Origin: Ignavibacteria bacterium
GTDB lineage: Bacteria > Bacteroidota > Ignavibacteria > Palsa-1295
NCBI GenBank assembly: GCA_013287605.1
Contig: JABDDM010000005.1
Span: 1 to 63,134 of the forward strand
Reading direction: 5' to 3'
DNA: 63,134 nt
The position numbers and the translations under genes were made by a program. Within the stretch, counting starts at the first letter, position 1. Every line of letters starts with the position of its first letter. Positions 21,515 through 46,944 of this stretch are shown piece after piece. Under the pieces are notes generated by a model, which was not told where the DNA came from, did not search any database, and worked only from the letters and a program-made list of their open reading frames with translations.

Positions 21515-21533
21515 GATCCGTGTGTGATAATTC

Positions 21534-22937
21534 TTAGAAGCGGTAGGCAAGCCCATATTGGATCCTGCCATTGAGCGTATTGCGAATGTCTGATCCCTGG
21601 AAGATGATCGGCATTTCGCCAGCAGATGATAGCTCACTAGAAATAACGTCGCGCATCAGTGGCGCGGTCGAGTGGATGCGCATCAATGAGAATCCTGCCG
21701 TGCCGGTCAGGTGCTCACCAAACGGTAACTTGAATCCGAGTTCGAACGAGAAGGTATTGCCCTGCGGAATCAGGCCAGCACCACCCGCGATTTCAAGTGC
21801 AAGTCCCGATTGAGGTGAAAGCAAGAAGCGGTGCCCGTAAAATACTTCTTCTGCAAGTTCACGCTGCTCCGAGAGATCGCGATGGACGACGATCGCACTC
21901 GAAGTCGTGCTCTTCACAATTGATGGCAGCGTCTGAAAAATACCAGAAGTAACCCTGAGTCCGACTACATCATGTTCGCCAAGGAAGTATGTTAGGTTGG
22001 CTCTAAAATCGGCAAAAGGATGAACTGTTGGCCCGCTAGCAGGATAGCTAAATCCGCTCGAGGTTTGCAGCCCTAATTCAAAATCAGAAATACCAGCAGG
22101 ACGATCGATGCCGATCGGTCGAATGTGCGTTAGAAAGTTCGTGCTGTGATAGCTGCTGCCAGCACTCGCGGCAATCGCAGTGTGAGGTGCCACCATCGTC
22201 ACAGAAGCAATGGATGCTTCATTGGCTACGGCTGACAGCACGTTTGCCTGCTCGGTAGCACTTGGTTGCGCAGAAATGTTTTGATCGGATGAATTTGGCA
22301 CCGGCAAAAGATCTGCATTTGCCTGGAATTCAGCCGAACGAGGTCCATGCTGTTGAACAGCATATACCCGATTGGTCACATGCACGTCACGAGAAATCCC
22401 GGCGGTGGGATTGACCGAACGAGTTGCTTGAGAAATATTCGCCTCCTGCTTTTTCAGCGAGCTTAGAGCCAGTCCGCCATTCGATGGTACATCACTTGGA
22501 GTCGTATTGTCTGGCTTGTCGATACTGCTGCTTTGCGAAGCAATGCTCGAACTCGTGGCAACAACATGATCACTACTTGAAGTTAACTCATAGATCGTAT
22601 AGCCTAAAACACCGAAGAGTAAGAGAGCAGCAGAAAGCCGGAACCACGAGTTCCACCAGAAGTAACCTGTACGGCGACGCTCAGCGGCGGCGAGTTGACT
22701 GACGTGTGTAAGGACACGCTCTTCGAGGGCAGGAGAGATGCTGCTTGCGAGAACAGCACGCTGCGAAATCTGCTGAAGTTGCTCATGCTCTGTAAAGAGC
22801 TGGCGGATTTCAGGGCTTACGCTTGCGCGATGCAAGAGCTCAGCACGTTCCGTGTCGCCGAGCTCGCCATCCATGTATTGAATGATGCGCTCCTCGACTG
22901 AACCCGCCGACATCGATTGTAGGTTTGTTTGTTTCAT
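21534..22937 (-). CDS. anti-sigma factor-like membrane protein with a C-terminal beta-barrel-like domain
   Basis: The N-terminus 'EERIIQYMDGELGDTERAELLHRASVSPEIRQLF' is an anti-sigma N-domain without the CxxC motif. One TM helix follows ('LSAALLLFGVLGYTIYEL'), then a Ser/Ala/Thr-rich linker of about 170 aa. The C-terminal 170 aa or so show alternating amphipathic strands and end '...GRIQYGLAYRF'. There is a 4-nt ATGA overlap with the sigma gene. Confidence 0.75.
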   Translation of the reverse strand: MKQTNLQSMSAGSVEERIIQYMDGELGDTERAELLHRASVSPEIRQLFTEHEQLQQISQRAVLASSISPALEERVLTHVSQLAAAERRRTGYFWWNSWFRLSAALLLFGVLGYTIYELTSSSDHVVATSSSIASQSSSIDKPDNTTPSDVPSNGGLALSSLKKQEANISQATRSVNPTAGISRDVHVTNRVYAVQQHGPRSAEFQANADLLPVPNSSDQNISAQPSATEQANVLSAVANEASIASVTMVAPHTAIAASAGSSYHSTNFLTHIRPIGIDRPAGISDFELGLQTSSGFSYPASGPTVHPFADFRANLTYFLGEHDVVGLRVTSGIFQTLPSIVKSTTSSAIVVHRDLSEQRELAEEVFYGHRFLLSPQSGLALEIAGGAGLIPQGNTFSFELGFKLPFGEHLTGTAGFSLMRIHSTAPLMRDVISSELSSAGEMPIIFQGSDIRNTLNGRIQYGLAYRF

Positions 22938-23987: not shown

Positions 23988-26894
23988 ATGAAACTACGCT
24001 CCATTGACTTTTGCAGAGTCATTTCTGTCATCCTCTTAATGTGCCTGCTTGGGGCAGGCTCTTCTCACGCACAAGGAAGGGTTGACCAGTACATTACAAC
24101 GACCTTTTCGGGAACTGTGCAGTCAATTTCCAGTACCGGGAATCCGCTGTCCTATGACGACGATGGCGTTTATTCTTTTAACGCTCCTTTCTCATTCGTA
24201 TATGATAGCACCACGGTAAGCTCCGGTACCCTGATGTACATAATGGATAATGGAATGATAGGGGTTGGCAGTTCGGCTAACGCGTCGTACAACAGCTCTT
24301 CATTAGGCTTTAGTACATATCCAAACCTCCTCTGTATCCTGAATACAGATCTGAATCACAACGGCAACCCTGGCAATTACTGGCAGGTTACAGGTACCTC
24401 GCCGAATCGCGTTTTGACGATGGAAGAATACAACGTCGAAGCCTTTGGCTACTCGACGGAGTCAGTGACCATTCAAACAAAGATTTACGAGTCCACTGGT
24501 GTTATTGAATTCTGGTATAGTAATTATAACTATACAATCAACGGAAGTGATGGATGCCAATGCGTATCGATCGGCTTGAATGGCGGCATAACTCCCTCGT
24601 TCAAATACTTGACATATGTAGCAAGCTCGACAACAACGCCAGGTTCAAATGTCCGTTTTACGCCGCCACCGCCACCCAAAGTTGCGCAATTGTCCGTTCA
24701 GCCGAAATCGGTTGATTTTGGATTTTTGCAGAGTGGACAATCATCGACGCTTTGCTCGATCATCGTGAGGAACACTGGTCCGAGCGATAACCTGCTTTTC
24801 CGAAGCATTTCAATGTCTGGTAATGCGGATTTCTCCATCGTTGGCGCAACCCCAACTTCTCTTGCGCCAGGTCTGGCGGATACAATTTGCATCAGGTTTG
24901 GGCCGCTCGCTTCTGGAAACCGCAGTGCGACGTTGACATTCATAACCAACGGTAGGGATAGCGCGATTCAGCTTGTCTCACTCCATGGATTCGGAATTGC
25001 GCCCGGAATTTCTGTTGCTACAACAAGCCTCTTTAAGAAGACGAGAACAAAATTGGGAGACTCGCTAACCCAGTCGTTCCTCGTATCGAGCACCGGAACC
25101 GGACCATTAACCTTTCTGAGTATTACTCCGACAGGACTCTACGCCGGTGAATACGCCGTGACTCGCATGCCACTCAGTCCGTTGCCACAAGGTACTTCCG
25201 ACACAATCTCTGTGACGTATAAGCCAACACAAGAGGGCAGTCGTCCAGCCTTTCTTGCGATTCAAAGCAACGCACTTAATCTTCCGAGCGATACCATCAA
25301 ACTCTTTGGGGTTGGGACGCTGCCACGCTTGACAGTGACACCAGAGCCTCTCAACTTTGATTCTGTTGGTGTTGGCGATCAACGATGCAGCGATGTTACG
25401 TTGTATAACCCCGGAACCGACACAGTGTTGATCACCCACAACTACTTATCAAGCTTCGATGCTGATTACACGATCACACCGCTGACTGGGCTGGATACGA
25501 TCATTCCTCCGGATAAGAGCAGGACAATTCATGTCTGCTTCACGCCTATTCGCAACGGCTTGCGTCAGGCGCGCCTCCGTGTCACGACCAGCATTCCACT
25601 GACGTTCGAAGAGCCACGCCGCGATACCAGTTCATTTTTCGTTGACATCATTGGCGAGGGCGTGCCGTTCGGGAGACTTTCGGTCAGAGGCACAGCCATC
25701 ATCGATTCCGCGATCGTTGGACAGAAGCTTTGCAAGACCGACACGTTCTATAACTCTGGATCGGCGGCTGTTACGATTTCGGGAGCAACGATCACTGGGA
25801 CTAGTGCGACGGACTATGTGCTAACCGGCGTCACATTCCCGATTGTTGTGCAGCCAGGCCAGAGTCAGGTATTCACGCTTTGCGTAACGCCTGCCCAACG
25901 CGGCGACCGCACAGCATTCCTAAATCTTGCTGCAACATCGAACGGTAAGCCCATCAACGACAGTCTTCCACTCGATATCTTTGGGCAGTTGGTCTGTGCA
26001 TCTGCAACGCCAAGTTCTGCCTTTGCAACAAAAACGTGCGTCGGGATGACCGATACTGCGTGGGTCGTTGTCTCGAATTGCGGTGATGTTGCAACGCCGT
26101 ACACTGCTTCGATTCCAACAACCGTGACTACGTACGCGGTTGCCGGCGCAGCCACTTCCACAGTCGTTGGCCCGAATGGCAAGGCGACGTTCCCGATTAC
26201 CTTCACGCCAACTGATCGCACGCCGCAAAATGCGACGCTGACGATCACAGGCAATAACGGTGTTTTGCAGACAGTGACGCTTACCGGTACCGGTCAGGCT
26301 GCGATCGCAGTAGGCTCGGGTGTCGCGGATACCACGCACATGCAGCAGTCGTCGAACTTCAATCTGAAGATCAACAACACTGGTGAATGTGAATGGAACC
26401 CAGGAACACCGACTTTCTCGGATCCGCAGTTCAGTTACGTGAGCGGTAGCACAAACATCCCAGCGGGTGGTTCGGGTACGATCGTTGTCAAGTTTGCGCC
26501 GACCAAGGGCGGATTGCAGACCGCGACGCTCGCATTCCCAACTGCAATTGGAGTTTCGCTTCCAGCAGCGAACGTCACTGTCTCCGGCTTCGCCACAGGA
26601 GTCCAGGGCGTGGCTCAACTTGCCGAGGCCAATGGCTATAGTTTGAAACAGAACTATCCGAACCCGTTCAACCCGACGACAGAGATTCGTTTCGTAGTTG
26701 CCAAGGAAGGAACTGTGACGATGAACGTCATCGACGTCACAGGTAAGGTTGTTCGCAACGTGCTCAATGAACGAATGAGTGCTGGCGAACACTCAACGGT
26801 CGTGAACGCGAGCGAGCTTTCGAGCGGTGTGTACTACTATCAGCTCATCGCCGGTAGCACAGTGCTAACTCGTCAGATGGTGCTTGCGAAGTAG
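23988..26894 (+). CDS. large T9SS-sorted surface protein with repeated Ig-like (choice-of-anchor-D / ASH-type) domains
   Basis: 968 aa. It has a signal peptide and at least 6 repeats of the 'L.v.P..ldFG.v.vG......i.v.N.G...l.i' type. It ends in the type-A sorting domain 'LKQNYPNPFNPTTEIRFVV...SSGVYYYQLIAGSTVLTRQMVLAK'. Confidence 0.85.
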   Translation: MKLRSIDFCRVISVILLMCLLGAGSSHAQGRVDQYITTTFSGTVQSISSTGNPLSYDDDGVYSFNAPFSFVYDSTTVSSGTLMYIMDNGMIGVGSSANASYNSSSLGFSTYPNLLCILNTDLNHNGNPGNYWQVTGTSPNRVLTMEEYNVEAFGYSTESVTIQTKIYESTGVIEFWYSNYNYTINGSDGCQCVSIGLNGGITPSFKYLTYVASSTTTPGSNVRFTPPPPPKVAQLSVQPKSVDFGFLQSGQSSTLCSIIVRNTGPSDNLLFRSISMSGNADFSIVGATPTSLAPGLADTICIRFGPLASGNRSATLTFITNGRDSAIQLVSLHGFGIAPGISVATTSLFKKTRTKLGDSLTQSFLVSSTGTGPLTFLSITPTGLYAGEYAVTRMPLSPLPQGTSDTISVTYKPTQEGSRPAFLAIQSNALNLPSDTIKLFGVGTLPRLTVTPEPLNFDSVGVGDQRCSDVTLYNPGTDTVLITHNYLSSFDADYTITPLTGLDTIIPPDKSRTIHVCFTPIRNGLRQARLRVTTSIPLTFEEPRRDTSSFFVDIIGEGVPFGRLSVRGTAIIDSAIVGQKLCKTDTFYNSGSAAVTISGATITGTSATDYVLTGVTFPIVVQPGQSQVFTLCVTPAQRGDRTAFLNLAATSNGKPINDSLPLDIFGQLVCASATPSSAFATKTCVGMTDTAWVVVSNCGDVATPYTASIPTTVTTYAVAGAATSTVVGPNGKATFPITFTPTDRTPQNATLTITGNNGVLQTVTLTGTGQAAIAVGSGVADTTHMQQSSNFNLKINNTGECEWNPGTPTFSDPQFSYVSGSTNIPAGGSGTIVVKFAPTKGGLQTATLAFPTAIGVSLPAANVTVSGFATGVQGVAQLAEANGYSLKQNYPNPFNPTTEIRFVVAKEGTVTMNVIDVTGKVVRNVLNERMSAGEHSTVVNASELSSGVYYYQLIAGSTVLTRQMVLAK

Positions 26895-28975: not shown

Positions 28976-29683
28976 ATGAAGGTTGTACCTAACATCGAAG
29001 ACTACGCCGATCCAATTCAGTATCTCCGTGCAATGCACCTCGTGATACTTGATCGGGTACACACACTGGAAGCACTTATTCAACGTGCCCAAAAGATTAA
29101 GACCACCGGCCTGGACCTGCAGGACCCCGTTTGGCCGGAGCTTCTGTATTTTTTTAGTCGGGTATTACCGCTCCATGAGCGAGATGAAGAAGAGGCACTC
29201 TTTCCTGTAGTACTTCAAAAGTTACCGCGCATGGGCTTCCAGCCTCGCAACTCACCGATCGATTTTTTGCTAAACGGTCACGAATTACTGACCGAGCGCA
29301 CCGAACTGTTAACCGACATTTGGCGGAAGTATATGGATGTTGGAAGGGCTGGCAGCTCGGAAGCAACAGAAAAGGCATTCCTTGATACAGCCACGGAGCT
29401 TGTGCAATTGTTGAGAGAGCATATCGCAACCGAGGATAAGCAGGTCTATTCGAAGGCAAACGATCTGCTAACGCCCGAGGAGCGTAGCTCGATCATGGCC
29501 AATATTGAGCAGCGCCATATGGAAACAGTGGCGATGCCTATGCCAGAATACGACATACCGATGTTTTCCTTGCCGCTTAAGTTTACTATCGGCGAACCTG
29601 AGGACAATCCCGCCGATGCAATATCCCAGGACGAGCTTTCCTCGGAAGAAGAGGACAGCGATGATGACAAAAGCGATAAGTAA
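28976..29683 (+). CDS. hemerythrin-like (HHE cation-binding) domain protein with an acidic tail
   Basis: The start is at MKVVPNIEDY (ATG 28976); the longer track ORF would overlap dut. The His/Glu spacing is 'MHLVILDRVH', 'LHERDEEE', 'GHELL' and 'EHIATED'. The tail is 'SSEEEDSDDDKSDK'. Its stop overlaps the moaA ATG (TAATG). Confidence 0.6.
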   Translation: MKVVPNIEDYADPIQYLRAMHLVILDRVHTLEALIQRAQKIKTTGLDLQDPVWPELLYFFSRVLPLHERDEEEALFPVVLQKLPRMGFQPRNSPIDFLLNGHELLTERTELLTDIWRKYMDVGRAGSSEATEKAFLDTATELVQLLREHIATEDKQVYSKANDLLTPEERSSIMANIEQRHMETVAMPMPEYDIPMFSLPLKFTIGEPEDNPADAISQDELSSEEEDSDDDKSDK

Positions 29684-30666
29684 TGGCCCTGCTCGATCGC
29701 TTTGGACGTGTTCATGATTATCTCCGAGTTTCGGTGACAGACCGGTGCGATCTTCGCTGCGCGTATTGCATGCCGGAAGAAGGCATCGATTGGCGCGATA
29801 GTACCGAGCTACTCACGTTCGAAGAAATCGAGCGAGTCGTAAGCATCTTTGTCCAACAAGGCGTCCGCAAGGTTAGACTCACGGGTGGAGAGCCTCTCAT
29901 TCGGCCTGAGCTTCCAACACTGGTTGCAATGCTCCGCAAGCTCCCAGGACTCGAAACGATCGCCATTACGACCAATGCTACACATCTTGCTCGGGACGCT
30001 TCGTCACTCAAGCGTGCTGGACTCGACAAAATAACTGTGAGCCTGGACACACTTCATCCGGCGCGATTTGCCGCAATCACACACCGAGATCGCTTCGCGG
30101 AGGTCTGGCGCGGGATCGAGGCCGCAATCGCGGAGGGTTTTTTACCGCTCAAGTTAAATGTTGTTTTGATGGCCCGAGTCAACGATGATGAGGTTCTCGA
30201 TTTCGTTAGACTCTCATGCGAACGCCCGATCATCGTTCGCTTTATTGAATTTATGCCGTTCAAAGAGAATGGATGGAGCACGACGAAACTGATAAGTTAT
30301 CGCGACCTGCTCCAACAGATTTCGCGAGAATTCACCCTTCAGCCAGTCGAGAGTAGCTCAAGATCTGATGTCGCAAAGGAATACACTGTCAATGGGGGGC
30401 TGGGCAGGATCGGATTCATTACCTCGATGACCGAAGATTTTTGCTCCACGTGTAATCGAATGCGTTTAACGGCTGATGGCGCGATCAAGAGCTGCTTGCA
30501 TGATGGCGCCGAATTCAGTATTCGAGACCTCATGAGATCTGGCGCAACCCAGGTGGAGATAGAAAACGTCATACGACGGTCATTGGCTGGTAAGCAAGAA
30601 CGCCACGCTGGCATCGATGAGCTCTATCAAATCGAAAACCGGACGATGATCCAGATCGGCGGATGA
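29683..30666 (+). CDS. moaA: GTP 3',8-cyclase (radical SAM, molybdenum cofactor biosynthesis protein A)
   Basis: 'LRVSVTDRCDLRCAYCMPEEG' carries the CxxxCxxC radical-SAM motif. The C-terminal auxiliary-cluster motif is 'FCSTCNRMRLTADGAIKSCL'. Confidence 0.95.
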   Translation: MALLDRFGRVHDYLRVSVTDRCDLRCAYCMPEEGIDWRDSTELLTFEEIERVVSIFVQQGVRKVRLTGGEPLIRPELPTLVAMLRKLPGLETIAITTNATHLARDASSLKRAGLDKITVSLDTLHPARFAAITHRDRFAEVWRGIEAAIAEGFLPLKLNVVLMARVNDDEVLDFVRLSCERPIIVRFIEFMPFKENGWSTTKLISYRDLLQQISREFTLQPVESSSRSDVAKEYTVNGGLGRIGFITSMTEDFCSTCNRMRLTADGAIKSCLHDGAEFSIRDLMRSGATQVEIENVIRRSLAGKQERHAGIDELYQIENRTMIQIGG

Positions 30667-31877
30667 TCACGCTAGAAGAAGCTCAAGCTATTATTTTGCG
30701 CAAGACGCAGGTGCTCTCGACCCTCGTTGTGCCTCACGCCAAGTCCCTCGGATACGCATTGAGTGAAGATATCTATGCTTCAACGGACGTTCCCTCTTTC
30801 GATAATTCGTCTGTGGATGGTTACGGAGTGAAGATCGCGGATGTGGATAATGCGAGCAATGCTCCTGTAGCGCTCACTCTCTCGCACACAGTCCACGCTG
30901 GTGAGACAACACGGAAGCAACTCTGCTCAGGTGAGACATTCAAAATCATGACTGGCGCGTTTGTCCCAAAAGGAGTTGAAGCTATCATCATGCGTGAGCA
31001 TGCTCGAGAGAGGAAAGGTCGAGTTATCATCTGTCGCTCGGCGGGAGCCGGACAGAACATTCGTAAACAGGGGAGCGAATTCTTAAAAGGGCAATCGATA
31101 CTTCAACAAGGCGCGATCATTACGCCTCCAGTTCTTGGCATCCTTGCTAGTCTTGGAGTCACACGTGTGACGGTAATACGAAAGCCAACAATCGGCCTTT
31201 TGATAACCGGTGACGAATTGATCTCCGGAAAGGAGAAACTCAGTCTTGCCAAGGTTCGAGATTCAAATTCTTCTATGCTTGAAGGGATTCTCCGAATACT
31301 CGGTGTTGAAAAAATATTGACCATCCGCACGAAGGACAACGCTGTTGCAATCCGCAAAGCAATCCTTCGATTGCTGGATAATGATGTATTAATAACGGTC
31401 GGAGGTGTTTCAGTTGGCGATCGAGATCTTGTCAAAGATCAACTTGAAGCTGCTGGAGTTCAGCGGCATTTTTGGGGGATTGATATGAAACCAGGCAAGC
31501 CAAATTACTTTGGGTCGCATGCAACAGGTAAGCGTAGAACACTTGTGTTTGGGGTTCCCGGAAATCCTGTTTCGGCTGCTGTGTCCTTTAAGAAGCTGAT
31601 CGAGCCCGCCATTTGGAAGATGCAAGGTGCAAAGCAGACGATACTTCGGATGCGGGCTACGCTCAAGGACACGATGCAGCCCGATAAGCATCGGGTGGAG
31701 TTTGCTCGAGGCATTCTCGAAACAAAGGAAGGGAATCTCTATGTCACACCAGTACGAGGTCAGGGTTCCGGAATGTTAGGTGGACTTGCTGAGGCTAATG
31801 TGTTGATCAAACTCCTTCCAGGAGATTCTGAAATCGCAAAGGGAAGCGAGGTGGAAGTTGAGCTTCTTCATTGGTGA
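30663..31877 (+). CDS. moeA: molybdopterin molybdotransferase
   Basis: 404 aa. It shows the MoeA pattern 'SSVDGYGV', the MoCF-binding domain 'IGLLITGDEL...VRDSNSSML...ITVGGVSVGDRDLV', and 'FGVPGNPVSA'. It overlaps moaA by 4 nt. Confidence 0.92.
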   Translation: MITLEEAQAIILRKTQVLSTLVVPHAKSLGYALSEDIYASTDVPSFDNSSVDGYGVKIADVDNASNAPVALTLSHTVHAGETTRKQLCSGETFKIMTGAFVPKGVEAIIMREHARERKGRVIICRSAGAGQNIRKQGSEFLKGQSILQQGAIITPPVLGILASLGVTRVTVIRKPTIGLLITGDELISGKEKLSLAKVRDSNSSMLEGILRILGVEKILTIRTKDNAVAIRKAILRLLDNDVLITVGGVSVGDRDLVKDQLEAAGVQRHFWGIDMKPGKPNYFGSHATGKRRTLVFGVPGNPVSAAVSFKKLIEPAIWKMQGAKQTILRMRATLKDTMQPDKHRVEFARGILETKEGNLYVTPVRGQGSGMLGGLAEANVLIKLLPGDSEIAKGSEVEVELLHW

Positions 31878-31890
31878 CGAAGTTCAAAAG

Positions 31891-31962
<72 letters not shown>

Positions 31963-31984: not shown

Positions 31985-32027
31985 TACAAAAGAACTGCCC
32001 CCTCACACACAAGTGCTGAAGGGGCAG
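31985..32027 (-). terminator. probable terminator after the DUF1501 gene
   Basis: The stem ctgcccc (31995-32001) pairs with ggggcag (32021-32027) around a long 19-nt loop. On the minus strand it is followed by a T-rich run. Confidence 0.45.
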
Positions 32028-32049
32028 TCGTTGTAGCTTCAATTTTTAC

Positions 32050-33639
32050 TCAGTGTAAGATCATCATCTGTCGCGTCAGTTTATCTTGCGGTGTGATAAG
32101 CCGATAAAAATATCTGCCGCTGGCCAGACCACTGGGTCTGAATTCGACTCGATGATTGCCTTCGTGCAAGAGACCATCAACGAGACGTGCTACTTCCTGG
32201 CCAGCACCATTGAAAACTCCAAGCGTCATGTTGGTGGAGGCAGGCAAGGCAAATTCAATCGTGGTTGATGTGATGACAGGATTCGGATGGTTCTGCATCA
32301 GCATCAAGCCAAATTGTGATCCAGCCGCAATAGGATCGAGTCCCTGACTTGGCTTAAACAGACCAAGCTTGATCCAATTCGCATTCGTAGAATATGTTTC
32401 GGAATTCGATGCGGTGAGCACGTTCGAGATCGTTTTATCGTCTACTCCGAGCCATTCGCTCATCATCGTTGCATAGACATTCCTGAAGTCATGACGCTGA
32501 TCATAATTCAGATTGTCGTAGATCAGATTGTCAAGATCGGGGTCGTGGCCAAGGATGCCACCCTTAACGCGTGTTCCAACTACGAAGAGTGGATAGCTTG
32601 CGCCATGATCTGTTCCGGAGCCATTCTGGACTGGCCGTCTACCAAATTCCGAGTAAGTCATTGTGATGACTTTGTCGGCGATCTTTAGCGCTTCGAGATC
32701 ATTCTGAAACGCCCAGAGTGCGGCATCGAGATCGATATGATGAGCAGATTGGCCCGACCAAAGCTCGCTATGAAAATCGTAACCGCCCTGGGTGACGACA
32801 TAAATCCTGGTCTTCAGTCCGCTTGCAATAAGCTGCGCAACGCTGGCCAATTGCTGTCCGAGCAAGGTGTCAGGATAGATCACTTTGTTTTTCGTGACCG
32901 CGCGGTTCGCTAGTGTACTGTTATAGACCTCGGTTTCCTGTTGAATGTCTCGCACATACGAAAGCGATTGGTGTGCAAGATCAGGATTTGATCCAATAGG
33001 ATCATAGGTGTGCACACTGTTCATGACTGGATCAGGCAGTTGGGCGACCGGTATCCCCATCTCTCCGTTCCTACCGTGAAAAATGTTGATTGGCACGGTC
33101 CCGAAGTGGATGGCGAGTGGATCGCTACCTTTTGTCACCGTGCTCATCGAAAACGCTGGGTTCTGTTCAGTCAACAATCTTCCGACCCAGCCGGTCTGAC
33201 GATACAAATTTGAGTCGGTCGCCGTGTGTACGATGTCCGTCCCTCGAAAATGTGAGAACTCAGGATTCGGATACCCAACGTTTTGAAGGATCGTCATTCT
33301 GCCGGTCTTATACAAATTGAACACCTCCGGCAGATCCTGGTGCATCGCGAGCGAGCCATGATCGGGCAGAAAATTCAACTTGAATTCTGGCTTATTGAGC
33401 CTAAGGTCCGGGCGAAGACTCGTGTACGTTGGATTGTAGTAAGGTACGAGACAATTCAACCCGTCATTTCCGCCTGAGAGTTGGAGCATGACCAGCACCT
33501 GACCGTTATCGGCAAGTGCTTTTTGTCCGTTGCCACCTTTTCCAAAGACCTGCAGCGGCATACCACCAACCAGCAGTGGAAGTGCGTTGGCAGCTAGACC
33601 AACCTGAATACCTTTGCGCAAAAATTCACGTCGTTTCAT
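32050..33639 (-). CDS. DUF1501 (sulfatase/alkaline-phosphatase-fold) protein with a Tat signal and a T9SS C-terminal sorting domain
   Basis: The Tat signal is 'MKRREFLRKGIQVGLAANALPLLVGG'. The DUF1501 hallmarks 'LQLSGGNDGLN' and 'GSGTDHGAS' are present. The sorting domain is 'QNHPNPVITSTTIEFALP...LASGRYFYRLITPQDKLTRQMMILH'. Confidence 0.88.
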   Translation of the reverse strand: MKRREFLRKGIQVGLAANALPLLVGGMPLQVFGKGGNGQKALADNGQVLVMLQLSGGNDGLNCLVPYYNPTYTSLRPDLRLNKPEFKLNFLPDHGSLAMHQDLPEVFNLYKTGRMTILQNVGYPNPEFSHFRGTDIVHTATDSNLYRQTGWVGRLLTEQNPAFSMSTVTKGSDPLAIHFGTVPINIFHGRNGEMGIPVAQLPDPVMNSVHTYDPIGSNPDLAHQSLSYVRDIQQETEVYNSTLANRAVTKNKVIYPDTLLGQQLASVAQLIASGLKTRIYVVTQGGYDFHSELWSGQSAHHIDLDAALWAFQNDLEALKIADKVITMTYSEFGRRPVQNGSGTDHGASYPLFVVGTRVKGGILGHDPDLDNLIYDNLNYDQRHDFRNVYATMMSEWLGVDDKTISNVLTASNSETYSTNANWIKLGLFKPSQGLDPIAAGSQFGLMLMQNHPNPVITSTTIEFALPASTNMTLGVFNGAGQEVARLVDGLLHEGNHRVEFRPSGLASGRYFYRLITPQDKLTRQMMILH

Positions 33640-33671
33640 ATATCGTAAGATCTTGTATAGTGGAAGAGAGG

Positions 33672-35405
33672 TTAAACCAACTGAAATTCAGGATACGTGG
33701 CTATCGAACGCGCATAACCTGCGCCGTAATCGACACTGAAGTGCCATCCGCCTTCGGGCAGATCAAGCACGTTCACAACGTGATAGAGTGCTGCTGTCTC
33801 TACCGGTCCGGGCGGCAATCCCATGATATGTGCTTCGATTCCTGAGGAGAGAGCTTTGATCATAATGTCCTTTTGCCCGGGATAGGATTGCATCCAATCA
33901 TCGGCCTTAAAATGGAGATTCACCCCATTGACACCGGCTGAACCATCAAAGGGATCGGGATACGCCAAAAGATTCAACGCCATTTGTTGGCGATCCTGAA
34001 ACGTCTTTGTGGTAATCCAGTCTGGGCCTGTCGGCCAGCCCTTCACGTTCGGCGGGTTGAGGATTTCTTGCCCGAGTGCAGCGGCTACCGTTTCTGAAAG
34101 ATATGTCAGACTCGGGTTTGGATCCGTGTAAGAGTTATAGCCCTGCGCGTCAGTTGATTTGACCGCTGGATCCTGAGCAACAAAGGTTGGGTAGGTGATC
34201 TCAAACTCGCGCACCATACTTCCAACCCACTCTACCGGCGATTTCAGATGTGCACCCATTACGCTCGTATCAAAGAAATGCGCACTGGAGAGCAGCGCGC
34301 TCATGACTGGCTTGATCTCCCAGTTGCTACTGAGAAGAAGATTCGCCATTGTATCAATGACCGCAGGATTTGGCACCCAATAAACGAAGGTAGTATAAAT
34401 GCGCTGTGAAATAAAGTACGCAATGTTGTACCCGCCGCCTTGAGCGAAGATGGTATCGATGATTTCGGTTAGTCCGAAATTCTTAGTCTGGCCAAAAAAG
34501 GTTTTGTTTGATGTATTGTGACACTGGGGCAGCAATTTTCCAACGAACGGGGCCGATGTTGTTGGCTGCCAGCCGGAGAGCGCCTGGCCGGCGTTGCGGA
34601 TGTCAGTCTCAGTATAGTTAGCCGCACCTGTCTTTGGGTCCAGTCTTCCAAGAGTAAAGAGCTCCATTAGCTCGCGTCCGAAATTTTCATTGACGTGATT
34701 GCCAGCGAAATTACCTTTCGGATCCTGTCCGAAATAGCTCTGGTTGCCATTGAGATACAAGAGCATCGCTGGATCGGTCGAGATCGCCATCACTAAATCT
34801 TTCAGATTTCCGAGCGCATTATTTCGAAGCGTCTGTGAGTACTGGTACATGTAGCCAGCATGACCAACGACACCTGAGCCGGTCACGAAATGGTTGCTCC
34901 ACATGAACGTCATCTTTTCCCAAATGCTCAAGTTCGTGCTCAACATCAGATCCAGCCACCAATTGCGCAACTGTTGCACGCGGGCAGCTTCTAACGACGC
35001 TTTATTGTGAGTGTCAATGTCGAGAAGCTTCGGATCGGTAATAGACGTGTCCGGCGCCAAGTACTCATCGACCCAAGTCGCAGGTTTTGGCGGAAGCCCT
35101 GCCGATGTATCAAGCAGCTTTGTGACCAAAACAGGCAAGCTCATCTTGCTCGCAGCATCCCACTGATCCCAAGGTACACCGAGCATCGTACGTCGGAGAA
35201 GGTGCCGCACTTGAATAGGGGTCCAAGCACCTGTATAGGGAGTGAGATCGTTCGAGAGGGTTTGAAGCGGCTGACCGTTCATCGCCGGTTCGAGTCGCGG
35301 ATTGCTTTTGCCCGAGGCTTGGGCAATGTTAGGTGCTGACACTGCACCGAGTGCGGTAGCTCCGGCCAACGCGCCTGAGTACTTTAAAAAACTTCTACGT
35401 TCCAT
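33672..35405 (-). CDS. DUF1800 protein with a Tat signal
   Basis: The Tat signal is 'MERRSFLKYSGALAGATALGAVSAPNIAQA'. The DUF1800 hallmarks 'VRHLLRRTMLG', 'MTFMWSNHFV' and 'NENFGRELMELFTLG' are present. It lies 32 nt upstream of the DUF1501 gene. Confidence 0.85.
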   Translation of the reverse strand: MERRSFLKYSGALAGATALGAVSAPNIAQASGKSNPRLEPAMNGQPLQTLSNDLTPYTGAWTPIQVRHLLRRTMLGVPWDQWDAASKMSLPVLVTKLLDTSAGLPPKPATWVDEYLAPDTSITDPKLLDIDTHNKASLEAARVQQLRNWWLDLMLSTNLSIWEKMTFMWSNHFVTGSGVVGHAGYMYQYSQTLRNNALGNLKDLVMAISTDPAMLLYLNGNQSYFGQDPKGNFAGNHVNENFGRELMELFTLGRLDPKTGAANYTETDIRNAGQALSGWQPTTSAPFVGKLLPQCHNTSNKTFFGQTKNFGLTEIIDTIFAQGGGYNIAYFISQRIYTTFVYWVPNPAVIDTMANLLLSSNWEIKPVMSALLSSAHFFDTSVMGAHLKSPVEWVGSMVREFEITYPTFVAQDPAVKSTDAQGYNSYTDPNPSLTYLSETVAAALGQEILNPPNVKGWPTGPDWITTKTFQDRQQMALNLLAYPDPFDGSAGVNGVNLHFKADDWMQSYPGQKDIMIKALSSGIEAHIMGLPPGPVETAALYHVVNVLDLPEGGWHFSVDYGAGYARSIATYPEFQLV

Positions 35406-35831
35406 GGGGTAAGCAGATGAAGAATTGTTGAGACAAAAACGAGATCAAGCGAACACAAACTCACGCATGAACCAATCGGGGGCTCCTGATGTGCGATCCT
35501 ATGGTGTAAGAACCCTCACGGTGGAATAAGTTACAGGGGGGACGAATTTCTACCCCCGTTGCCTAAGCACGCTCAATCGGAGCAATCTGACGAATTATTG
35601 CAAACTTACGACATCTGCGACCATGAGGCTTCCTTTGCAACCGGCAGGGCCTTTCCCGATCAATTATGCAGCCTGTAGTTCCTATTCCGTAGATGCCCGC
35701 CATTCGTGCTAATTGTGCTTTTAAACAAAGATACTTTGGCCACGGTGCACAATTCCGCTAAGAAAGAGTTATTTTGCCGCCGCGGGATACGCAATAGTGT
35801 TGTTTTGCCTTCGCTCTATCGTGCCTATTCT

Positions 35832-37901
35832 ATGAAAATTTCGATACTACGCCTATTTGGTGCGGTGATTCTCATCGCTGCTTCATCTCTCGTTCTGCGC
35901 GCTCAGGTCTGTGAAAATTTCGCCGTTGTTGCCAGCGCTACTGTACAGCTTTCTCCAAACAAAGTGACGATCACATGGCTGCCTGATGTGCTCGCCACAG
36001 GATATGCGGTGTCTCGCAGAATTTATGGAGGTTCAGATGACTTCGCACTATTGGCGAGCTCTACTGGAAAAGATTCAACATACGTCGACACCAATATCAC
36101 GCTGGGCTACCGATATGAGTACCAGATCATCAAGACCTTCAAACAAAATGGAGTTCAATTTTTTGGCTATGGATATCTCGCGGTAGGGGTGAATGCACCG
36201 CTAGTCGATCACATGGGCGGGGTCATCATCCTAACGGACAGCGTGATCTCGCAACCCCTAAAGACCGAGCTTGCTCGGCTTGAGCTGGACCTTATCGGAG
36301 ATGGTTGGACTGTAACAAGCCACGTTGTAGGTCGGTCGATGAAAGTTACCGACATCAAAGCAATTGTAAAAAAAGACTATCAGGTAGATCCAATGCACAC
36401 TCGATCCCTTTTTATCTTCGGGCATGTACCGATTCCTTATTCGGGATTGCTTAATCCAGATGGGCATTCCAATCATCTAGGTGCGTGGCCTACAGATCTG
36501 TACTACGGAAATTTCGATGGCGACTGGACTGACAACGTGATCAATGATGACTCTACTGTGCTCGTTCGACCTGAAATCCGAAATGTGATAGGCGATGGGA
36601 AATTTGATCAAAGCTCGATTCCTGCGCCGATGAATCTCGAGGTGGGCCGCGTCGATCTTTGGGACATGCCTGCCTTTGCTAAATCGGATACTGAACTTCT
36701 AAGGCAATATCTGAACAAGGACCATGCATTCCGTTTCCAAACCCTCACTGCTCCTGCACGTGGACTGATTAGTGATAATTTCGGTGCTTTCACTGGACTA
36801 GGTGAGGCCGAGGCGTTTGCTTCCGATGCGTGGCGTGCATTCCCGGCATTCTTCGGTCTTCAAAATACGCATGTATTGAGCTGGTTCGGAACACTCGACA
36901 CTGCCGCTTATCTCTGTGCATACGGTTGCGGAGGTGGATGGTTCACGAGCGCTGACGGCGTGGGGAATACTACGCAGTTCGATACAATAGGTAGCAAGGC
37001 GATCTTCACGATGCTATTTGGAAGTTACTTCGGTGATTGGGACTATGAAAATAGCTTTTTGCGAGCTCCTCTTTGCACAACCTACGGTCTTACTTCAAGT
37101 TGGTCAGGCCGCCCACTTTGGGTTTTTCATGCCATGGCAGTAGGCGAGCCGATAGGAACTTCCGCTCGAATGACGGAGGATAGCTCCGCAAGATATGTCC
37201 AATGGAGATACAACAATCGCTGGGGCAATGCCGCTAATAATGACGGCGGTGATGCGAGTTATGTAAGTGCCGAACTGTTGGGAGATCCTACACTCAAGCT
37301 CTTCTATCCATTGCCAATTGCCGATCAACATGCTTCACTCGTAGGTCAGAAGACAGTTCACCTCACGTGGGTGCCACCCAAGAATGATGGTGATCTTGTC
37401 GGTTTCAATCTCTACTCATCTGCTAAGCGAACCGGACCTTTCACCAAGATCAACCCGCAGCCGGTCTCTGCAACGAGCTATGACGACATAGCTCGTTATA
37501 CGGATTCGAATTTCTATATGGTCCGTTCGGTGAAGCTGATCACTACTGCAAGCGGCAGCTACTACGCTGCCTCGGAAGGGCAGGTGATGCAGGTCAATGG
37601 AGTCGCAGGTGTAGAAACTGGGGTAAGCCAGTTTGTGAATACGCTTACGGTGAAACAGAGCGCGCGAGGCGTCATTGTTACGATCTCTAATGCAGACGTT
37701 TCTTCAGCTCATCTTGCGGTCTACGACCTTCTTGGTCGCGAAGTCGCAGTGCTGCATGATGGTACTATTTCCGCAGGGATCTCGACGTATGGCTGGGATC
37801 TTCGAACCGTATCCGGAGCTACGGCAAATTCCGGCACCTATTTCGTTCGCATGACGGGCTCGGGCAACGAGAGAAGCGCAAAGTTCAACGTGAATCGTTA
37901 A
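35832..37901 (+). CDS. T9SS-sorted protein: FN3-like domain, gingipain (C25)-like domain with a substituted catalytic dyad, FN3-like domain, sorting domain
   Basis: The start is at MKISILRLFGAVILIAASSLVLRAQ. The C25-like blocks are 'VIILTD...', 'SLFIFGHVPIPY', 'TDLYYGNFDGDW', 'LEVGRVDL', 'YGCGGGWF', 'MLFGSYFGDW' and 'LGDPTLKLF'. The sorting domain is 'HLAVYDLLGREVAVL...NSGTYFVRMTGSGNERSAKFNVNR'. Confidence 0.65.
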   Translation: MKISILRLFGAVILIAASSLVLRAQVCENFAVVASATVQLSPNKVTITWLPDVLATGYAVSRRIYGGSDDFALLASSTGKDSTYVDTNITLGYRYEYQIIKTFKQNGVQFFGYGYLAVGVNAPLVDHMGGVIILTDSVISQPLKTELARLELDLIGDGWTVTSHVVGRSMKVTDIKAIVKKDYQVDPMHTRSLFIFGHVPIPYSGLLNPDGHSNHLGAWPTDLYYGNFDGDWTDNVINDDSTVLVRPEIRNVIGDGKFDQSSIPAPMNLEVGRVDLWDMPAFAKSDTELLRQYLNKDHAFRFQTLTAPARGLISDNFGAFTGLGEAEAFASDAWRAFPAFFGLQNTHVLSWFGTLDTAAYLCAYGCGGGWFTSADGVGNTTQFDTIGSKAIFTMLFGSYFGDWDYENSFLRAPLCTTYGLTSSWSGRPLWVFHAMAVGEPIGTSARMTEDSSARYVQWRYNNRWGNAANNDGGDASYVSAELLGDPTLKLFYPLPIADQHASLVGQKTVHLTWVPPKNDGDLVGFNLYSSAKRTGPFTKINPQPVSATSYDDIARYTDSNFYMVRSVKLITTASGSYYAASEGQVMQVNGVAGVETGVSQFVNTLTVKQSARGVIVTISNADVSSAHLAVYDLLGREVAVLHDGTISAGISTYGWDLRTVSGATANSGTYFVRMTGSGNERSAKFNVNR

Positions 37902-43406: not shown

Positions 43407-45215
43407 ATGAGGAAAGTTAGTCTTACTGACACGCTAAAAAAAGAACGCGATCCACGACATAGAGTCTATCTCTTACTCGCTGAAGCGGAAGCCCTGGCGC
43501 GCCCGGATATTCAACGGAGCGTGCAACTGAGTCTTCAGAGCATAAATGAAGCGAGGATATCGAAGATGAAGGATCTCATTGCCGCAAGCTTTGCGATCGC
43601 GGGCAAAAATACTTTCGTTGGCGGAGATCGAAAGAAAGCTGCAGGATACTTCAAACAAGCTTTGACGATTTATGATAGGCTGGGGGATGTAGACGCAGTA
43701 CTGGAGATGGAGTTCGAATTGGCTTCGGCAAAGCTGACGACAGGGAATGAGAGAGACACCTTGGTGCAGTTGCATCGGATACTTCATGATCGGACTCAGA
43801 CCCCATACCAAAGCCCAGCCGCAAGACAAGAGCACCTGCCGATTCGTACTACCGGCTTAGATGCGGTAGCCCGCTTTTTCATCCCGCGTTCATGGCAAGA
43901 TCGCGTTCAGAGACGGATTCCCACACCAGCGCAAATCGAAAAAAACCAGAGAATTCAGCTTGGAGCTTTGTATGATTCTCTTGGCCTTGCCTACATCGTG
44001 ATCCGCGAACATCACAAGGCCGCTTCATTCCTGGAGGAAGAACTTGCGATCTACAAGAGTTTGAATGATCGTCCCAGAATAGCTAATGCCATCAACAATT
44101 TGGGGTATATTCATGCACTCTTGGGAAACAACGTCCTCGCATTGGAGTATTGTCAGCAAGGATTGAAACTATCACGGCAATTGCAGGACAAGCGTGGCAT
44201 CGCGATCAATCAGCGAAATCTAGCACAACTCTATCTTACGACCGGCCCCGCAAGCCTTGGAAAGCGATTCGCAATGAAGTCATTCGAAACCGCCTCTGAG
44301 ATCGGAATGTCGGAGTTAGCTTGCCGAGCACTTGTCTTGCTTACCAAATATGAGCGCCTGCATGGTTCCCTTACTAAGTCCTCAAGTCTCAATGCAAAAG
44401 CATTGCGAATGTTGAAAAAAGGAGACAAAGGCAGACAATTCTTTTTCTTCTCTCTGCAACAATTGCTCATCGAGCATGCGCGGCAACCTTCGCGTAGTAA
44501 TTACACAAAGCTTCTTCGCCTGTACAGAGGCGCCAAAGCAAAGGGCTTGGAATTGCACCACGAAATCGCTCAGGAGATCGCCCGTGTGACCGAAGAACTT
44601 CACCTGCTTCCAGAGGCCGTCCGCTGGTTCAAGAAGGTTCAGGAGTATGAGATCCAGCGTTTGAACACAGAGCAGAAGAGTGCACTCGTTAGCTTGCAAA
44701 CGGAGCAAGAACTTGAGCGACTGGCAAAAGAACGAGAACTCCAGAAGTTGCAAATGGATAAACTCGAAGTGGAGTTGAATGCCAAAGCTCGGGAGACGCA
44801 GTTGCTTGCAGTACTTCTTGCCAAGAAAGGATCGGTCCTTGCAACACTAACCGATCAGTTGTCGACCATGAAGTCCTCCAATCCCAAATATTCGGAAGAG
44901 ACGATTGATGCAGTCATCGAGCTGATTGAGACGAGTCGTCACAAAGACAAAGAGTATGAGCATCTTGAAGAACGCGCCGAAGCGCTTCATCATGAGTTTA
45001 TCGTCTCGCTCTCGCAGCGCTTTCCAGAACTGACAGCCGCGGAAAAACGAATTTGCATACTCCTAAAGTTAGGGCTTAGCTCAGTTGATATTGCGAATGT
45101 TCTTTTTACGTCCGTTCGCACGATCGAAACACATTGTCTCAGTATCCGGAAGAAACTCCGGATTCCCTCGAGCACACGTCTCGCCAAGTTCTTAATAGCA
45201 TTTGAGCCCGCCTAA
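43407..45215 (+). CDS. TPR-repeat / coiled-coil transcriptional regulator with a C-terminal LuxR-type HTH
   Basis: It has TPR-like repeats ('ALEYCQQGLKLSRQLQDKRGIAINQRNLAQLY') and a coiled coil ('EQELERLAKERELQKLQMDKLEVELNAK'). The LuxR HTH is 'LTAAEKRICILLKLGLSSVDIANVLFTSVRTIETHCLSIRKKL'. Confidence 0.85.
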   Translation: MRKVSLTDTLKKERDPRHRVYLLLAEAEALARPDIQRSVQLSLQSINEARISKMKDLIAASFAIAGKNTFVGGDRKKAAGYFKQALTIYDRLGDVDAVLEMEFELASAKLTTGNERDTLVQLHRILHDRTQTPYQSPAARQEHLPIRTTGLDAVARFFIPRSWQDRVQRRIPTPAQIEKNQRIQLGALYDSLGLAYIVIREHHKAASFLEEELAIYKSLNDRPRIANAINNLGYIHALLGNNVLALEYCQQGLKLSRQLQDKRGIAINQRNLAQLYLTTGPASLGKRFAMKSFETASEIGMSELACRALVLLTKYERLHGSLTKSSSLNAKALRMLKKGDKGRQFFFFSLQQLLIEHARQPSRSNYTKLLRLYRGAKAKGLELHHEIAQEIARVTEELHLLPEAVRWFKKVQEYEIQRLNTEQKSALVSLQTEQELERLAKERELQKLQMDKLEVELNAKARETQLLAVLLAKKGSVLATLTDQLSTMKSSNPKYSEETIDAVIELIETSRHKDKEYEHLEERAEALHHEFIVSLSQRFPELTAAEKRICILLKLGLSSVDIANVLFTSVRTIETHCLSIRKKLRIPSSTRLAKFLIAFEPA

Positions 45216-45327: not shown

Positions 45328-46944
45328 ATGAACAAGGTGCACAGCGCCTCTTCTACCGCTATGGATCCCTATGCCGGTCCCTGGGGATTTGCCCAGGCCG
45401 CTCATTTATTGCGACGTTGCATGTTTGGCGCCACAGCGAAGGATATCAGTACTATGCAGCAGTTGACGATGTCACAGGCAGTCGATTTGCTACTTGCAGA
45501 TCAAGTTCCAGAGAGCAGCGCCCCTCTTGTTTGGTATCATTATGACATTAACGGCGTCAGTCAAGGTCAAACGTGGGTCAATCTTGATTATGACGCTTCT
45601 CACGATTTCAATAGGACCCAATCATTGGGGTCTTGGTGGCTCGGGCTCATGATCGCTCAAAATCTTTCGATTCGTGAGAAGATGACACTTTTCTGGCACA
45701 ATCATTTTGCCTGCGGCGCGGCGGCCGTAAGTGATGCTCGCTATTCCTATAAACAATGCGCGCTACTCAGAGCGAATGCACTTGGCAATTACAAATCCCT
45801 CGTAAAAGAGATTACGCTCGACCCTGCAGTACTCCGATACTTGAGCGGCAATAAGAATATCAGCTCGGCCCCTAATGAGAACTACGGGCGTGAATTACAG
45901 GAATTGTTCACGATTGGAAAAGGCCCCGAAGTATCCACTGGAGACTATACAACGTATACGGAAGCCGACGTCAAGGCGGCGGCACATGTACTGACTGGCT
46001 GGAGCGATGATCAGCAGACTGTTGGGCGTGTCTTCAACGCGGCCAAACACGACCCATCCGATAAGCAATTCTCGGCACGCTATGGCAATACCATCATCAA
46101 AGGAGGATCGGATCAAGCAGGAGCCGAGAAAGAGATAGACGCCCTGATAACGATGATCTTCAGTCAGGATGCTACCGCGAAATACATTTCAAGGAAGCTG
46201 TACCGCTGGTTTGTCGATTATGTGATCGACGATTCTATCGAACAGAATGTGATCGCACCCATGGCAGACGCACTAAAAACAAATAACTTCGAGATCAAGC
46301 CGGTGCTCTCATTGCTCTTCAAGAGTTCACATTTTTATGACGCGGCTTACACAGGATGCGTCATCAAGACGCCCATGGATTATATCGTGGGTACGCTGCG
46401 ATGCATCGATGTTGTGATGCCGATGAATGAGGGTGTCATTACCCAGTATTATGGCTGGATCGGTCTCCTGGTGACTGGAGCGAATCTTCAAATGGACTTG
46501 ATGGAACCTCCTAATGTCGCGGGTTGGCCAGCGTATTATCAGCAGCCCGAGTTTCATGAGCTCTGGCTAAATGCAGACACACTCGATTCCAGGATCAAAC
46601 TCGTCGATGATTTCGCATCAAACAAATACGCGATCGCTGTCCAGGTGCAGTACAAGACAAGCATCGACCCAACGTTGTTGGCGCAAAAGTCTTCCGATCC
46701 ATCGAATCCCGATACACTGATCAATGATTGGGCGAAGCTACTTTATCCAAATCCACTCACTCCAGATCAATTGAAGACGTTGCATGACACGCTTCTACCG
46801 GGATTGCCGAGCTACGAGTGGACCAATGAGTGGGCCGCTTTTATCAATAATCAGAGTGACGCGGCGAAGAAGCAGGCGGTCAGCGACAAGCTGACTATTC
46901 TCTTGAAGTACATGCTGGAAATGGCGGAATACCAACTGATGTAA
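45328..46944 (+). CDS. DUF1800 protein, second paralogue, with no signal peptide
   Basis: The ATG at 45328 follows AGGAGG by 6 nt; the track start at 45304 is a GTG. The hallmarks 'AAHLLRRCMFG', 'MTLFWHNHFA' and 'NENYGRELQELFTIG' are present. The N-terminus 'MNKVHSASSTAMDPYAGPWG' has no hydrophobic or RR signal. Confidence 0.85.
   Translation: MNKVHSASSTAMDPYAGPWGFAQAAHLLRRCMFGATAKDISTMQQLTMSQAVDLLLADQVPESSAPLVWYHYDINGVSQGQTWVNLDYDASHDFNRTQSLGSWWLGLMIAQNLSIREKMTLFWHNHFACGAAAVSDARYSYKQCALLRANALGNYKSLVKEITLDPAVLRYLSGNKNISSAPNENYGRELQELFTIGKGPEVSTGDYTTYTEADVKAAAHVLTGWSDDQQTVGRVFNAAKHDPSDKQFSARYGNTIIKGGSDQAGAEKEIDALITMIFSQDATAKYISRKLYRWFVDYVIDDSIEQNVIAPMADALKTNNFEIKPVLSLLFKSSHFYDAAYTGCVIKTPMDYIVGTLRCIDVVMPMNEGVITQYYGWIGLLVTGANLQMDLMEPPNVAGWPAYYQQPEFHELWLNADTLDSRIKLVDDFASNKYAIAVQVQYKTSIDPTLLAQKSSDPSNPDTLINDWAKLLYPNPLTPDQLKTLHDTLLPGLPSYEWTNEWAAFINNQSDAAKKQAVSDKLTILLKYMLEMAEYQLM

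Follow-up and report, generated by a model that had tools for sequence, protein, structure and literature searches.

The stretch of DNA analysed here, which we call the window, comprises 63,134 nucleotides (nt) of contig JABDDM010000005.1 from an Ignavibacteria bacterium (GenBank assembly GCA_013287605.1). It contains two pairs of adjacent genes for a DUF1800 and a DUF1501 protein, of which pair 1 is the main subject of this study and pair 2 serves as its counterpart. A reading made from the letters of the DNA alone (hereafter the original prediction) had described pair 1 as a two-gene unit on the minus strand with a 32-nt gap, in which both proteins carry twin-arginine translocation (Tat) motifs and the DUF1501 protein additionally ends in a type IX secretion system (T9SS) sorting domain. 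Both open reading frames (ORFs) and the gap were confirmed, and pair 1 is laid out as follows.

33672-35405, minus strand: DUF1800-1, an ORF of 577 amino acids (aa) without a sorting domain; the upstream gene of pair 1
35316-35405, minus strand: Tat signal peptide of DUF1800-1 (residues 1-30), with MERRSFLK, a hydrophobic region (h-region) and an AQA↓S site
33640-33671, minus strand: spacer of 32 nt between DUF1800-1 and DUF1501-1
32050-33639, minus strand: DUF1501-1, an ORF of 529 aa plus stop; the downstream gene of pair 1
33541-33639, minus strand: Tat-type signal peptide of DUF1501-1 (residues 1-33), with MKRREFLRK, an uncharged h-region of 24 residues and VFG↓K
32053-32301, minus strand: type-A T9SS C-terminal sorting domain (CTD) of DUF1501-1 (residues ~447-529)
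~31987-32029, minus strand: intrinsic terminator hairpin with U-tract, which closes the two-gene operon

The terminator was recognized by direct folding (dG -29.8 kcal/mol, z -5.6, equalled by 0/200 shuffles). A promoter and terminator scan of the window gave counts at chance level and missed this real terminator.

DUF1800-1 matched PF08811 with 288.8 bits against a gathering threshold (GA) of 26.1, and DUF1501-1 matched PF07394 with 70.5 bits (GA 27), the latter match spanning residues 230-401 and profile positions 206-365 only; GGNDG and GTDHG are located at residues 56-60 and 342-346 of DUF1501-1. The N-terminus of DUF1800-1 is MERRSFLKYSGALAGATALGAVSAPNIAQA, followed by SGK after the cleavage site. 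The ERRSFLK motif noticed in it earlier proved to belong to a complete signal, which passes both curated Tat hidden Markov models (HMMs), PF10518 with 23.9 (cut-off 22.7) and TIGR01409 with 21.7 (cut-off 16.7). DUF1501-1 begins with MKRREFLRKGIQVGLAANALPLLVGGMPLQVFG, in which the predicted KRREFLRK motif is indeed present, as a MKRREFLRK start followed by an h-region. Compared with the consensus (S/T)-R-R-x-F-L-K, taken together with an uncharged, moderately hydrophobic h-region and a signal-peptidase site, the signals of DUF1501-1, DUF1800-1 and DUF1501-2 (the DUF1501 protein of pair 2) all agreed. At the other end of DUF1501-1, the sequence QNHPNP...GRYFYRL...MMILH had been taken for a complete type-A T9SS domain, and it remained one when the C-terminal 80 aa were checked against the curated T9SS type-A model TIGR04183, which the domain passes with 27.3 (cut-off 23). 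In the structure model of DUF1501-1, the C-terminal beta-sandwich has a predicted local distance difference test score (pLDDT) of 80-95, and Foldseek matched it to the CTD of PorZ (5m11).

Conservation of this combination was followed in two surveys. A survey of species representatives (one genome per species, 185,579 species) gave 594 DUF1501 relatives, and the counts below are those of the best 80 loci; a survey of protein clusters supplied the best 120 relatives of DUF1501-1 in a collection of 5.8 billion proteins. Nearly all of these best 120 are annotated with PF07394 and PF18962, and the full-length ones among them, down to 36% identity, all start with M-K-R-R-[DE]-F-[LI]-K and end in sorting-domain motifs. 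The best 80 loci span Kapaibacteria (Kapabacteria), Ignavibacteria (Stygiobacter and Melioribacter), Rhodothermales, Balneolaceae, Chitinophagaceae, Saprospiraceae and Cyclobacteriaceae, and their cultured carriers include Pedobacter lithocola, Spirosoma sordidisoli, Daejeonella sp. and Lacihabitans sp. PF07394 matched 80/80 relatives, and TIGR04183 and PF18962 both matched 79/80 (best E 3e-14). When a complete signal was defined as RR.[hydrophobic]2 together with 12 or more uncharged residues, it was present in 70 of the 79 non-truncated proteins; two were borderline, and seven had RK, RD or RH with an intact h-region. Loss of the Tat motif in these seven had been considered and was rejected on inspection, which showed them to be such variants. 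Across the 80 relatives, whose overall identity is just 32-53%, residues R3 and F6 never vary and R4 is conserved to at least 90%. The Tat consensus is therefore likely to be under selection, because these positions persist while the remaining signal drifts.

Two properties of the signals point in the same direction. Most DUF1501 orthologues have basic residues beside the cleavage site (RALGRSPLR), a known feature for avoiding the general secretory (Sec) pathway. The best 12-residue hydropathy is 1.96 and 2.02 for the two DUF1501 signals and 1.57 for that of DUF1800-1, compared with 2.1-3.5 for the Sec-type sorting-domain proteins of the window. As a specificity control, ten further ORFs of the loci and the window that end in a sorting domain were read in the same way, and 10/10 were Sec-like even with the RR reading prioritised. 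To judge from these sequences, the Tat motif joined to a sorting domain is a family trait beyond chance, because both occur in essentially every full-length relative, and the conservation that the original prediction had asked about was found in Kapabacteria, Ignavibacteria, Rhodothermales, Balneolaceae and many Bacteroidota families. The sole member without a sorting domain (1/80) is a Latescibacterota protein (locus L041, 6004-7422) that keeps its Tat signal (TIGR01409 19.0, cut-off 16.7) and in which a GC-type dockerin anchor replaces the sorting domain (NF041540 31.1, cut-off 29). This swap suggests that the C-terminal module is a localisation device.

DUF1800 lies directly upstream of DUF1501 on the same strand in every one of the best 80 loci that has upstream sequence. 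The spacer has a median of 19 nt and is at most 30 nt in 49/77 loci; with the two genes adjoining in all 77 loci where spacing was measurable, the conserved pairing on which the original prediction had been made to depend was borne out. Around the pair, no further conserved neighbour was found in the 80 loci except a TonB-dependent receptor, whose gene directly follows that of DUF1501 in about 10 of them (e.g. L018, 7605-10094), a weak hint that the DUF1501 enzyme releases a nutrient for uptake. Because nothing else around the pair is conserved, we regard it as a self-contained two-gene operon.

The second pair of the window differs from the first in its DUF1800 protein.

45328-46944, plus strand: DUF1800-2, 538 aa from an ATG after AGGAGG; PF08811 322.7 bits (GA 26.1)
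46971-48536, plus strand: DUF1501-2, 521 aa; PF07394 66.8; PF18962 27.6 (cut-off 27); type-A sorting domain

DUF1501-2, which shares 35% identity with DUF1501-1 along its full length, has a Tat-type signal, MKRRDFLRAAAPAALLPFLVGGYSVKAFA followed by N (MKRRDFLR...AFA↓N). DUF1800-2, which is 33% identical to DUF1800-1, has no signal and no room for one, as its reading frame opens at 45304, eight codons ahead of the ATG, and the conserved domain begins at once with MNKVHSASSTAMDPYAGPWG. Its orthologues at 63-79% identity are all signal-less. Adjacent subunits of which one has a signal and the other none, as is expected of a Tat hitchhiker, are thus seen in pair 2 and in most relatives but not in pair 1, where both proteins have signals. 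The state of the DUF1800 signal was then counted in three sets, the second being 147 diverse DUF1800 representatives drawn from 21,627 at E ≤ 1e-3.

77 non-truncated ORFs of the 80 loci: full signal, 6; RR/RK stub without h-region, ~35; none, ~31; ambiguous, 3
147 diverse representatives: full signal, 9; stub, 61; none, 73; Sec-like, 4
119 relatives of DUF1800-2: full signal, effectively 0; stub, 71; none, 45; Sec-like, 1

The stub opens the protein with M-[DN]-R-R-x-F-[LF] and runs into charged, Lys/Arg-rich hydrophilic sequence, as in MDRRDFLTAKRKK; it was found in L043, L047, L063, L064, L066 and about 30 further loci. RR is present in 35/35 stubs and F in 34/35, and positions 8-20 contain 4.1 charged residues on average. 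Some of the cases counted as having no signal are decayed RK forms, and the Kapabacteria clade to which pair 1 belongs mostly keeps the full signal. Read at the N-termini, the DUF1800 signal is usually lost while the DUF1501 signal stays. Such an asymmetric loss leads us to expect that the pair crosses the membrane as a complex for which one signal suffices (Tat hitchhiking), and it suggests that DUF1800 is exported attached to DUF1501. The initial picture of two Tat signals is probably better replaced by that of a piggy-back export system. In one locus of a Bacteroidota metagenome-assembled genome (L006, 534-7668), a single DUF1501 gene with a sorting domain is preceded by three DUF1800 genes in tandem, all of which encode complete Tat signals; this suggests that these DUF1800 proteins are exchangeable partner subunits. 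The extreme C-terminus of DUF1800 is also conserved (consensus ...LPEFQL-x, with Q575 at least 90% conserved and L576 invariant); it reads YPEFQLV in DUF1800-1 (33672-33692, minus strand) and AEYQLM in DUF1800-2 (46924-46941, plus strand), and it could be a docking tail.

The model of DUF1501-1 (pLDDT 75.7, predicted template modelling score (pTM) 0.70) was matched by Foldseek to S1 sulfatases, YejM/PbgA, LtaS, ARSA, autotaxin and PlcN with E of 2.5e-5 to 1e-3. The probability of these matches was 0.96-1.0, but the template modelling score (TM) was 0.26-0.47 and the sequence identity 7-14%. A PDB sequence search with the DUF1501 profile returned weak matches to the sorting domain only, and PF00884 (Sulfatase) gave a weak match (E 0.007) in 1/80 relatives. 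The invariant residues of DUF1501 are D59 after strand 1, S129-H130-F131-R132 before a helix, D135, D288, H290, E331 and D344-H345. On the strength of the model, DUF1501 is assigned to the alkaline-phosphatase-superfamily fold, with Ser129 as the probable nucleophile and Asp/His residues as the probable metal ligands. The original prediction of a sulfatase fold therefore stands at the level of the superfamily, while the word sulfatase was too specific: the S1 sulfatase signature C/S-x-P-x-R is absent from DUF1501 and is replaced by the invariant SHFR (S129-R132). Because the invariant residues fit the metal-ligand and nucleophile pattern of the superfamily and this signature is absent, we infer that DUF1501 is a hydrolase or transferase of phospho- or sulfo-esters that depends on metal and uses a Ser nucleophile. 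The AlphaFold model of DUF1800-1 (pLDDT 85.8, pTM 0.86) is mainly helical; no match was found in a Foldseek search of the PDB (best E 1.2, TM ≤ 0.11), and a sequence search of the PDB found no relative. Since the PDB offers no match, no function can be transferred to DUF1800.

We propose that DUF1501 and DUF1800 may constitute an extracytoplasmic two-subunit enzyme, in which DUF1501 would be the catalytic subunit and DUF1800 an obligate helical partner. Both proteins would fold in the cytoplasm, where they would probably load metal and associate; their combined mass of ~115 kDa lies inside the known range of Tat. The inner membrane would be crossed via Tat, in pair 1 with a signal of its own on each subunit, and in pair 2 and most Bacteroidota relatives with the signal on DUF1501 only and DUF1800 carried piggy-back. 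In the periplasm, the type-A CTD of DUF1501 would hand the folded enzyme to the T9SS, and the enzyme would finally be released or attached at the cell surface, where DUF1800 might remain bound to it. For the pair we infer that export depends on Tat, that the T9SS is then passed, that the two proteins form a complex, that the substrate is a phospho- or sulfo-ester and that the role is nutrient scavenging; a two-subunit enzyme taking the route through Tat and then the T9SS is in our view fairly probable. A further-reaching version appears doubtful to us: the T9SS would secrete a heterodimer that had formed in the cytoplasm and come through Tat, DUF1800, lacking a secretion signal, would cross both membranes as a passenger of DUF1501, and the RR stub would serve as a second, functional motif for docking to TatC that is neither inserted into the membrane nor cleaved. 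If this version were true, the stub would represent a novel type of partial Tat signal and DUF1800 the first piggy-back T9SS cargo.

Several observations weigh against the proposed route. The generic Tat HMMs PF10518 and TIGR01409 gave no match to DUF1501-1 at E ≤ 0.1, and among the 80 DUF1501 relatives the Pfam model matched 2/80 and TIGR01409 7/80 at E ≤ 0.01; the Tat assignment of DUF1501-1 therefore rests on the motif, the properties of the h-region and conservation. About 9% of the DUF1501 relatives have RK, RD or RH rather than RR. The sorting domain of DUF1501-1 scores 21.3 with PF18962, under the GA of 27, and neither tat nor T9SS machinery genes lie within the 63-kb window. A fusion of the two proteins was not found: no protein of at least 900 aa occurred among the 150 best DUF1800 representatives, which is a weak test, and a concatenated DUF1800 and DUF1501 query had nothing but single-domain DUF1800 proteins among its best 120 matches, each scoring over 560 bits, which left no place for weaker fusions to appear. 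An RR stub alone does not prove that DUF1800 is exported. NarG, a non-exported protein, reportedly has a remnant Tat motif, although a paper that we checked did not state so. Finally, the T9GPred rule, derived from 102 experimentally verified T9SS substrates that are all of Sec type, requires a Tat signal to be absent. As a review also describes T9SS cargo as Sec-dependent, while noting that the T9SS moves folded proteins (PMC9251779), the two sources agree with the original prediction that such cargo is normally described in this way. The Sec-type signal expected of type-A T9SS cargo is not what DUF1501 has, its signal being of Tat type, and T9GPred would exclude it. No report of Tat-dependent T9SS cargo was found in the full-text literature, subscription-only papers being outside the search.

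In one rival explanation, DUF1501 goes through Tat and then the T9SS while signal-less or stub-bearing DUF1800 stays in the cytoplasm as a maturation or proofreading factor, export of DUF1800 being limited to the clade of pair 1. Such a factor would insert a cofactor or metal or modify the active site, analogous to redox enzyme maturation protein (REMP) chaperones or sulfatase maturases, and the invariant SHFR at the nucleophile position of the superfamily could need such a modification; moreover, most DUF1800 proteins lack an h-region or any signal, and a remnant RR motif is known from NarG, which is not exported and binds the chaperone NarJ. However, the Tat signals of DUF1800 in the clade of pair 1 are complete, pass the HMMs and have an AxA site, which places the protein outside the cytoplasm there, and two locations for one conserved 1:1 partnership are less parsimonious than one. 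The nearly constant RRxF[LF] of the stub (35/35 RR, 34/35 F) matches the consensus recognised by TatC, and the three tandem Tat-signal DUF1800 genes of L006 look like exchangeable subunits, not like a chaperone. We therefore think that a purely cytoplasmic role of DUF1800 in most relatives is unlikely.

Other doubts concern the two ends of DUF1501 itself. Its signal might be functionally Sec or promiscuous for Sec and Tat, with RR as inherited family baggage, which would make DUF1501 an ordinary Sec-dependent T9SS cargo, as all verified T9SS cargo is so far. The failure of the curated Tat HMMs on DUF1501-1 and their calling of only 2-7 of 80 relatives fit this explanation, as do the RK, RD and RH variants and an h-region hydropathy of ~2.0, which is only slightly under that of the least hydrophobic Sec signal of the window (2.08). 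It is hard to reconcile, however, with invariant R3 and F6 and an R4 conserved to at least 90% across 32-53% identity, with the basic residues by the cleavage site of most orthologues (RALGRSPLR), typical of Sec avoidance, and with an obligate partner without a signal, which is difficult to explain without export in the folded state. In addition, PRED-TAT called DUF1501 proteins Tat substrates elsewhere (PMC5122149). We consider a Sec route distinctly improbable. We give still less credence to the idea that the C-terminal beta-sandwich is not a secretion signal but a binding or stabilising Ig-like module of a periplasmic Tat pair. The PF18962 score of pair 1 below the gathering threshold (21.3 against 27) speaks for it, 23/80 relatives also match the Ig-like model FlgD_ig, and DUF1501 proteins of other phyla, for which a periplasmic location is presumed, do without the domain. 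Against this stand the TIGR04183 score above the curated cut-off, the 79/80 relatives matching both models, the extreme C-terminal position that a sorting domain requires and the conserved PNP...G.Y.Y.L motifs; the members come from T9SS-bearing phyla, and the dockerin swap of Latescibacterota points to localisation.

Further genes of the window lie around the two pairs or have sorting domains.

12575-13795, minus strand: BNR/sortilin-like protein with a T9SS sorting domain
14349-14840, plus strand: small protein of 163 aa with a T9SS sorting domain
23988-26894, plus strand: HYDIN/ASH Ig-rich protein of 968 aa with a T9SS sorting domain
31890-31962: tRNA-Gly(CCC), beyond the terminator of pair 1
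35706-37901, plus strand: protein of 731 aa, divergent from pair 1, with a sorting domain (TIGR04183 26.5, cut-off 23)
43407-45215: TPR and LuxR-type regulator, upstream of pair 2
48572-50491, plus strand: GHL15 glycoside-hydrolase-like protein with a T9SS sorting domain, downstream of pair 2

The 731-aa protein has a Sec-type signal with an internal start at MKISILRLFGAVILIAASSLVLRAQ and weak matches to peptidase-C25-like and fn3 domains. The start of the GHL15 ORF is ambiguous (48572-48810, plus strand); the ORF contains SSRRKSFCIVGLLTLCLLLSQSVSQAQ, and we judged its signal to be Sec-type because its RR is off the spacing of the Tat consensus and its h-region is strongly hydrophobic (hydropathy 2.95). 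The window thus encodes at least seven sorting-domain proteins, including at least five beyond the two DUF1501 proteins, all five with Sec-type signals, and so many in 63 kb indicate that the T9SS is relied on heavily. The sizeable ORFs at 14846-16159 (plus strand), 20759-22937 (minus strand), 54698-55279 (minus strand) and 55899-56729 (plus strand) gave no Pfam match at E ≤ 0.001. MoaA and MoeA, proteins of molybdenum-cofactor biosynthesis, are encoded at 29683-31877 on the plus strand, convergent with pair 1. Neither was found beside the orthologous pairs in two Kapabacteria contigs, where the neighbours are unrelated, and the adjacency is for this reason probably coincidental.

Earlier work on Proteobacteria and on Planctomycetes/Verrucomicrobia had noted that DUF1501 has a Tat motif and that DUF1800 and DUF1501 share an operon, with function unassigned (PMC5122149; PMC3542564). 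What appear to be undescribed are the conserved joining of a T9SS sorting domain to a Tat-signal DUF1501 protein, the stepwise disappearance of its partner's signal, and an RR stub without an h-region. Should the route hold, a Tat and T9SS family would widen the accepted input of the T9SS, and such proteins are now filtered from predicted T9SS secretomes. DUF1501 and DUF1800 would offer cargo that is pre-folded, and perhaps oligomeric, in the periplasm, and thereby a probe of the capacity of the SprA translocon and the PorV shuttle. The series of full, stub and absent DUF1800 signals is a natural experiment on the evolution of Tat hitchhiking and on the role of the twin arginine without an h-region. 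Both families are very large and annotated without function (~21,600 cluster representatives for DUF1800), and the operon is present in the cultured T9SS-bearing genera Pedobacter, Spirosoma, Daejeonella and Lacihabitans, in which the predictions are directly testable.

Among known systems, the catalytic core of DUF1501 resembles S1 sulfatases, NPP/autotaxin, LtaS and YejM/PbgA in its core alpha/beta fold, the Asp of GGNDG, S129 before a helix, and DxH plus DH, and differs from S1 sulfatases in having S-H-F-R instead of C/S-x-P-x-R. Canonical type-A CTD cargo, such as gingipains and the hydrolases of Flavobacterium johnsoniae, shares with DUF1501 a TIGR04183/PF18962 beta-sandwich of ~75 residues at the C-terminus of a hydrolase; unlike DUF1501, with its invariant twin-arginine consensus and obligate co-operonic partner, it has Sec signals. 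The DUF1800-DUF1501 operons of Proteobacteria and the DUF1501-PSCyt/PSD modules of Planctomycetes/Verrucomicrobia are alike in Pfam families, operon logic and the Tat motif on DUF1501, whereas they lack a T9SS sorting domain and a periplasmic location is presumed for them, and the partner in Planctomycetes/Verrucomicrobia is the cytochrome-like PSCyt/PSD, not DUF1800.

In the asymmetry of its signals, the family recalls two established Tat systems. The small and large subunits of [NiFe] hydrogenases are a Tat hitchhiker pair encoded by adjacent genes, in which the signal-less partner is co-translocated after assembly in the cytoplasm. Pair 2 and most relatives show the same asymmetry, but DUF1800 and DUF1501 have no evident redox cofactor, the RR stub is an intermediate state, both proteins of pair 1 have signals, and an additional outer-membrane step is predicted. 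For the type II secretion system (T2SS), two-step secretion of Tat substrates is established, and in Pseudomonas aeruginosa PlcH and PlcR2 form a folded heterodimer (PlcHR2) that takes Tat and then the T2SS, its partner subunit being signal-less (PMC3601568). The outer-membrane step of PlcHR2 is carried out by the T2SS, for which there is no linear signal, whereas DUF1501 has a T9SS sorting domain; PlcR2 is a chaperone-like protein of 17 kDa and DUF1800 a conserved one of 55-60 kDa; the phylum is another, and PlcH is not a DUF1501 protein. Nevertheless, both cases combine a phosphoesterase, putative for DUF1501, that has a Tat signal with a signal-less partner in one operon and a second system for the outer membrane, and the PlcN structure 9gy2 was among the fold matches of DUF1501. 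Because PlcHR2 uses Tat and then the T2SS, the asymmetric DUF1800-DUF1501 pair has a logical precedent in another outer-membrane system.

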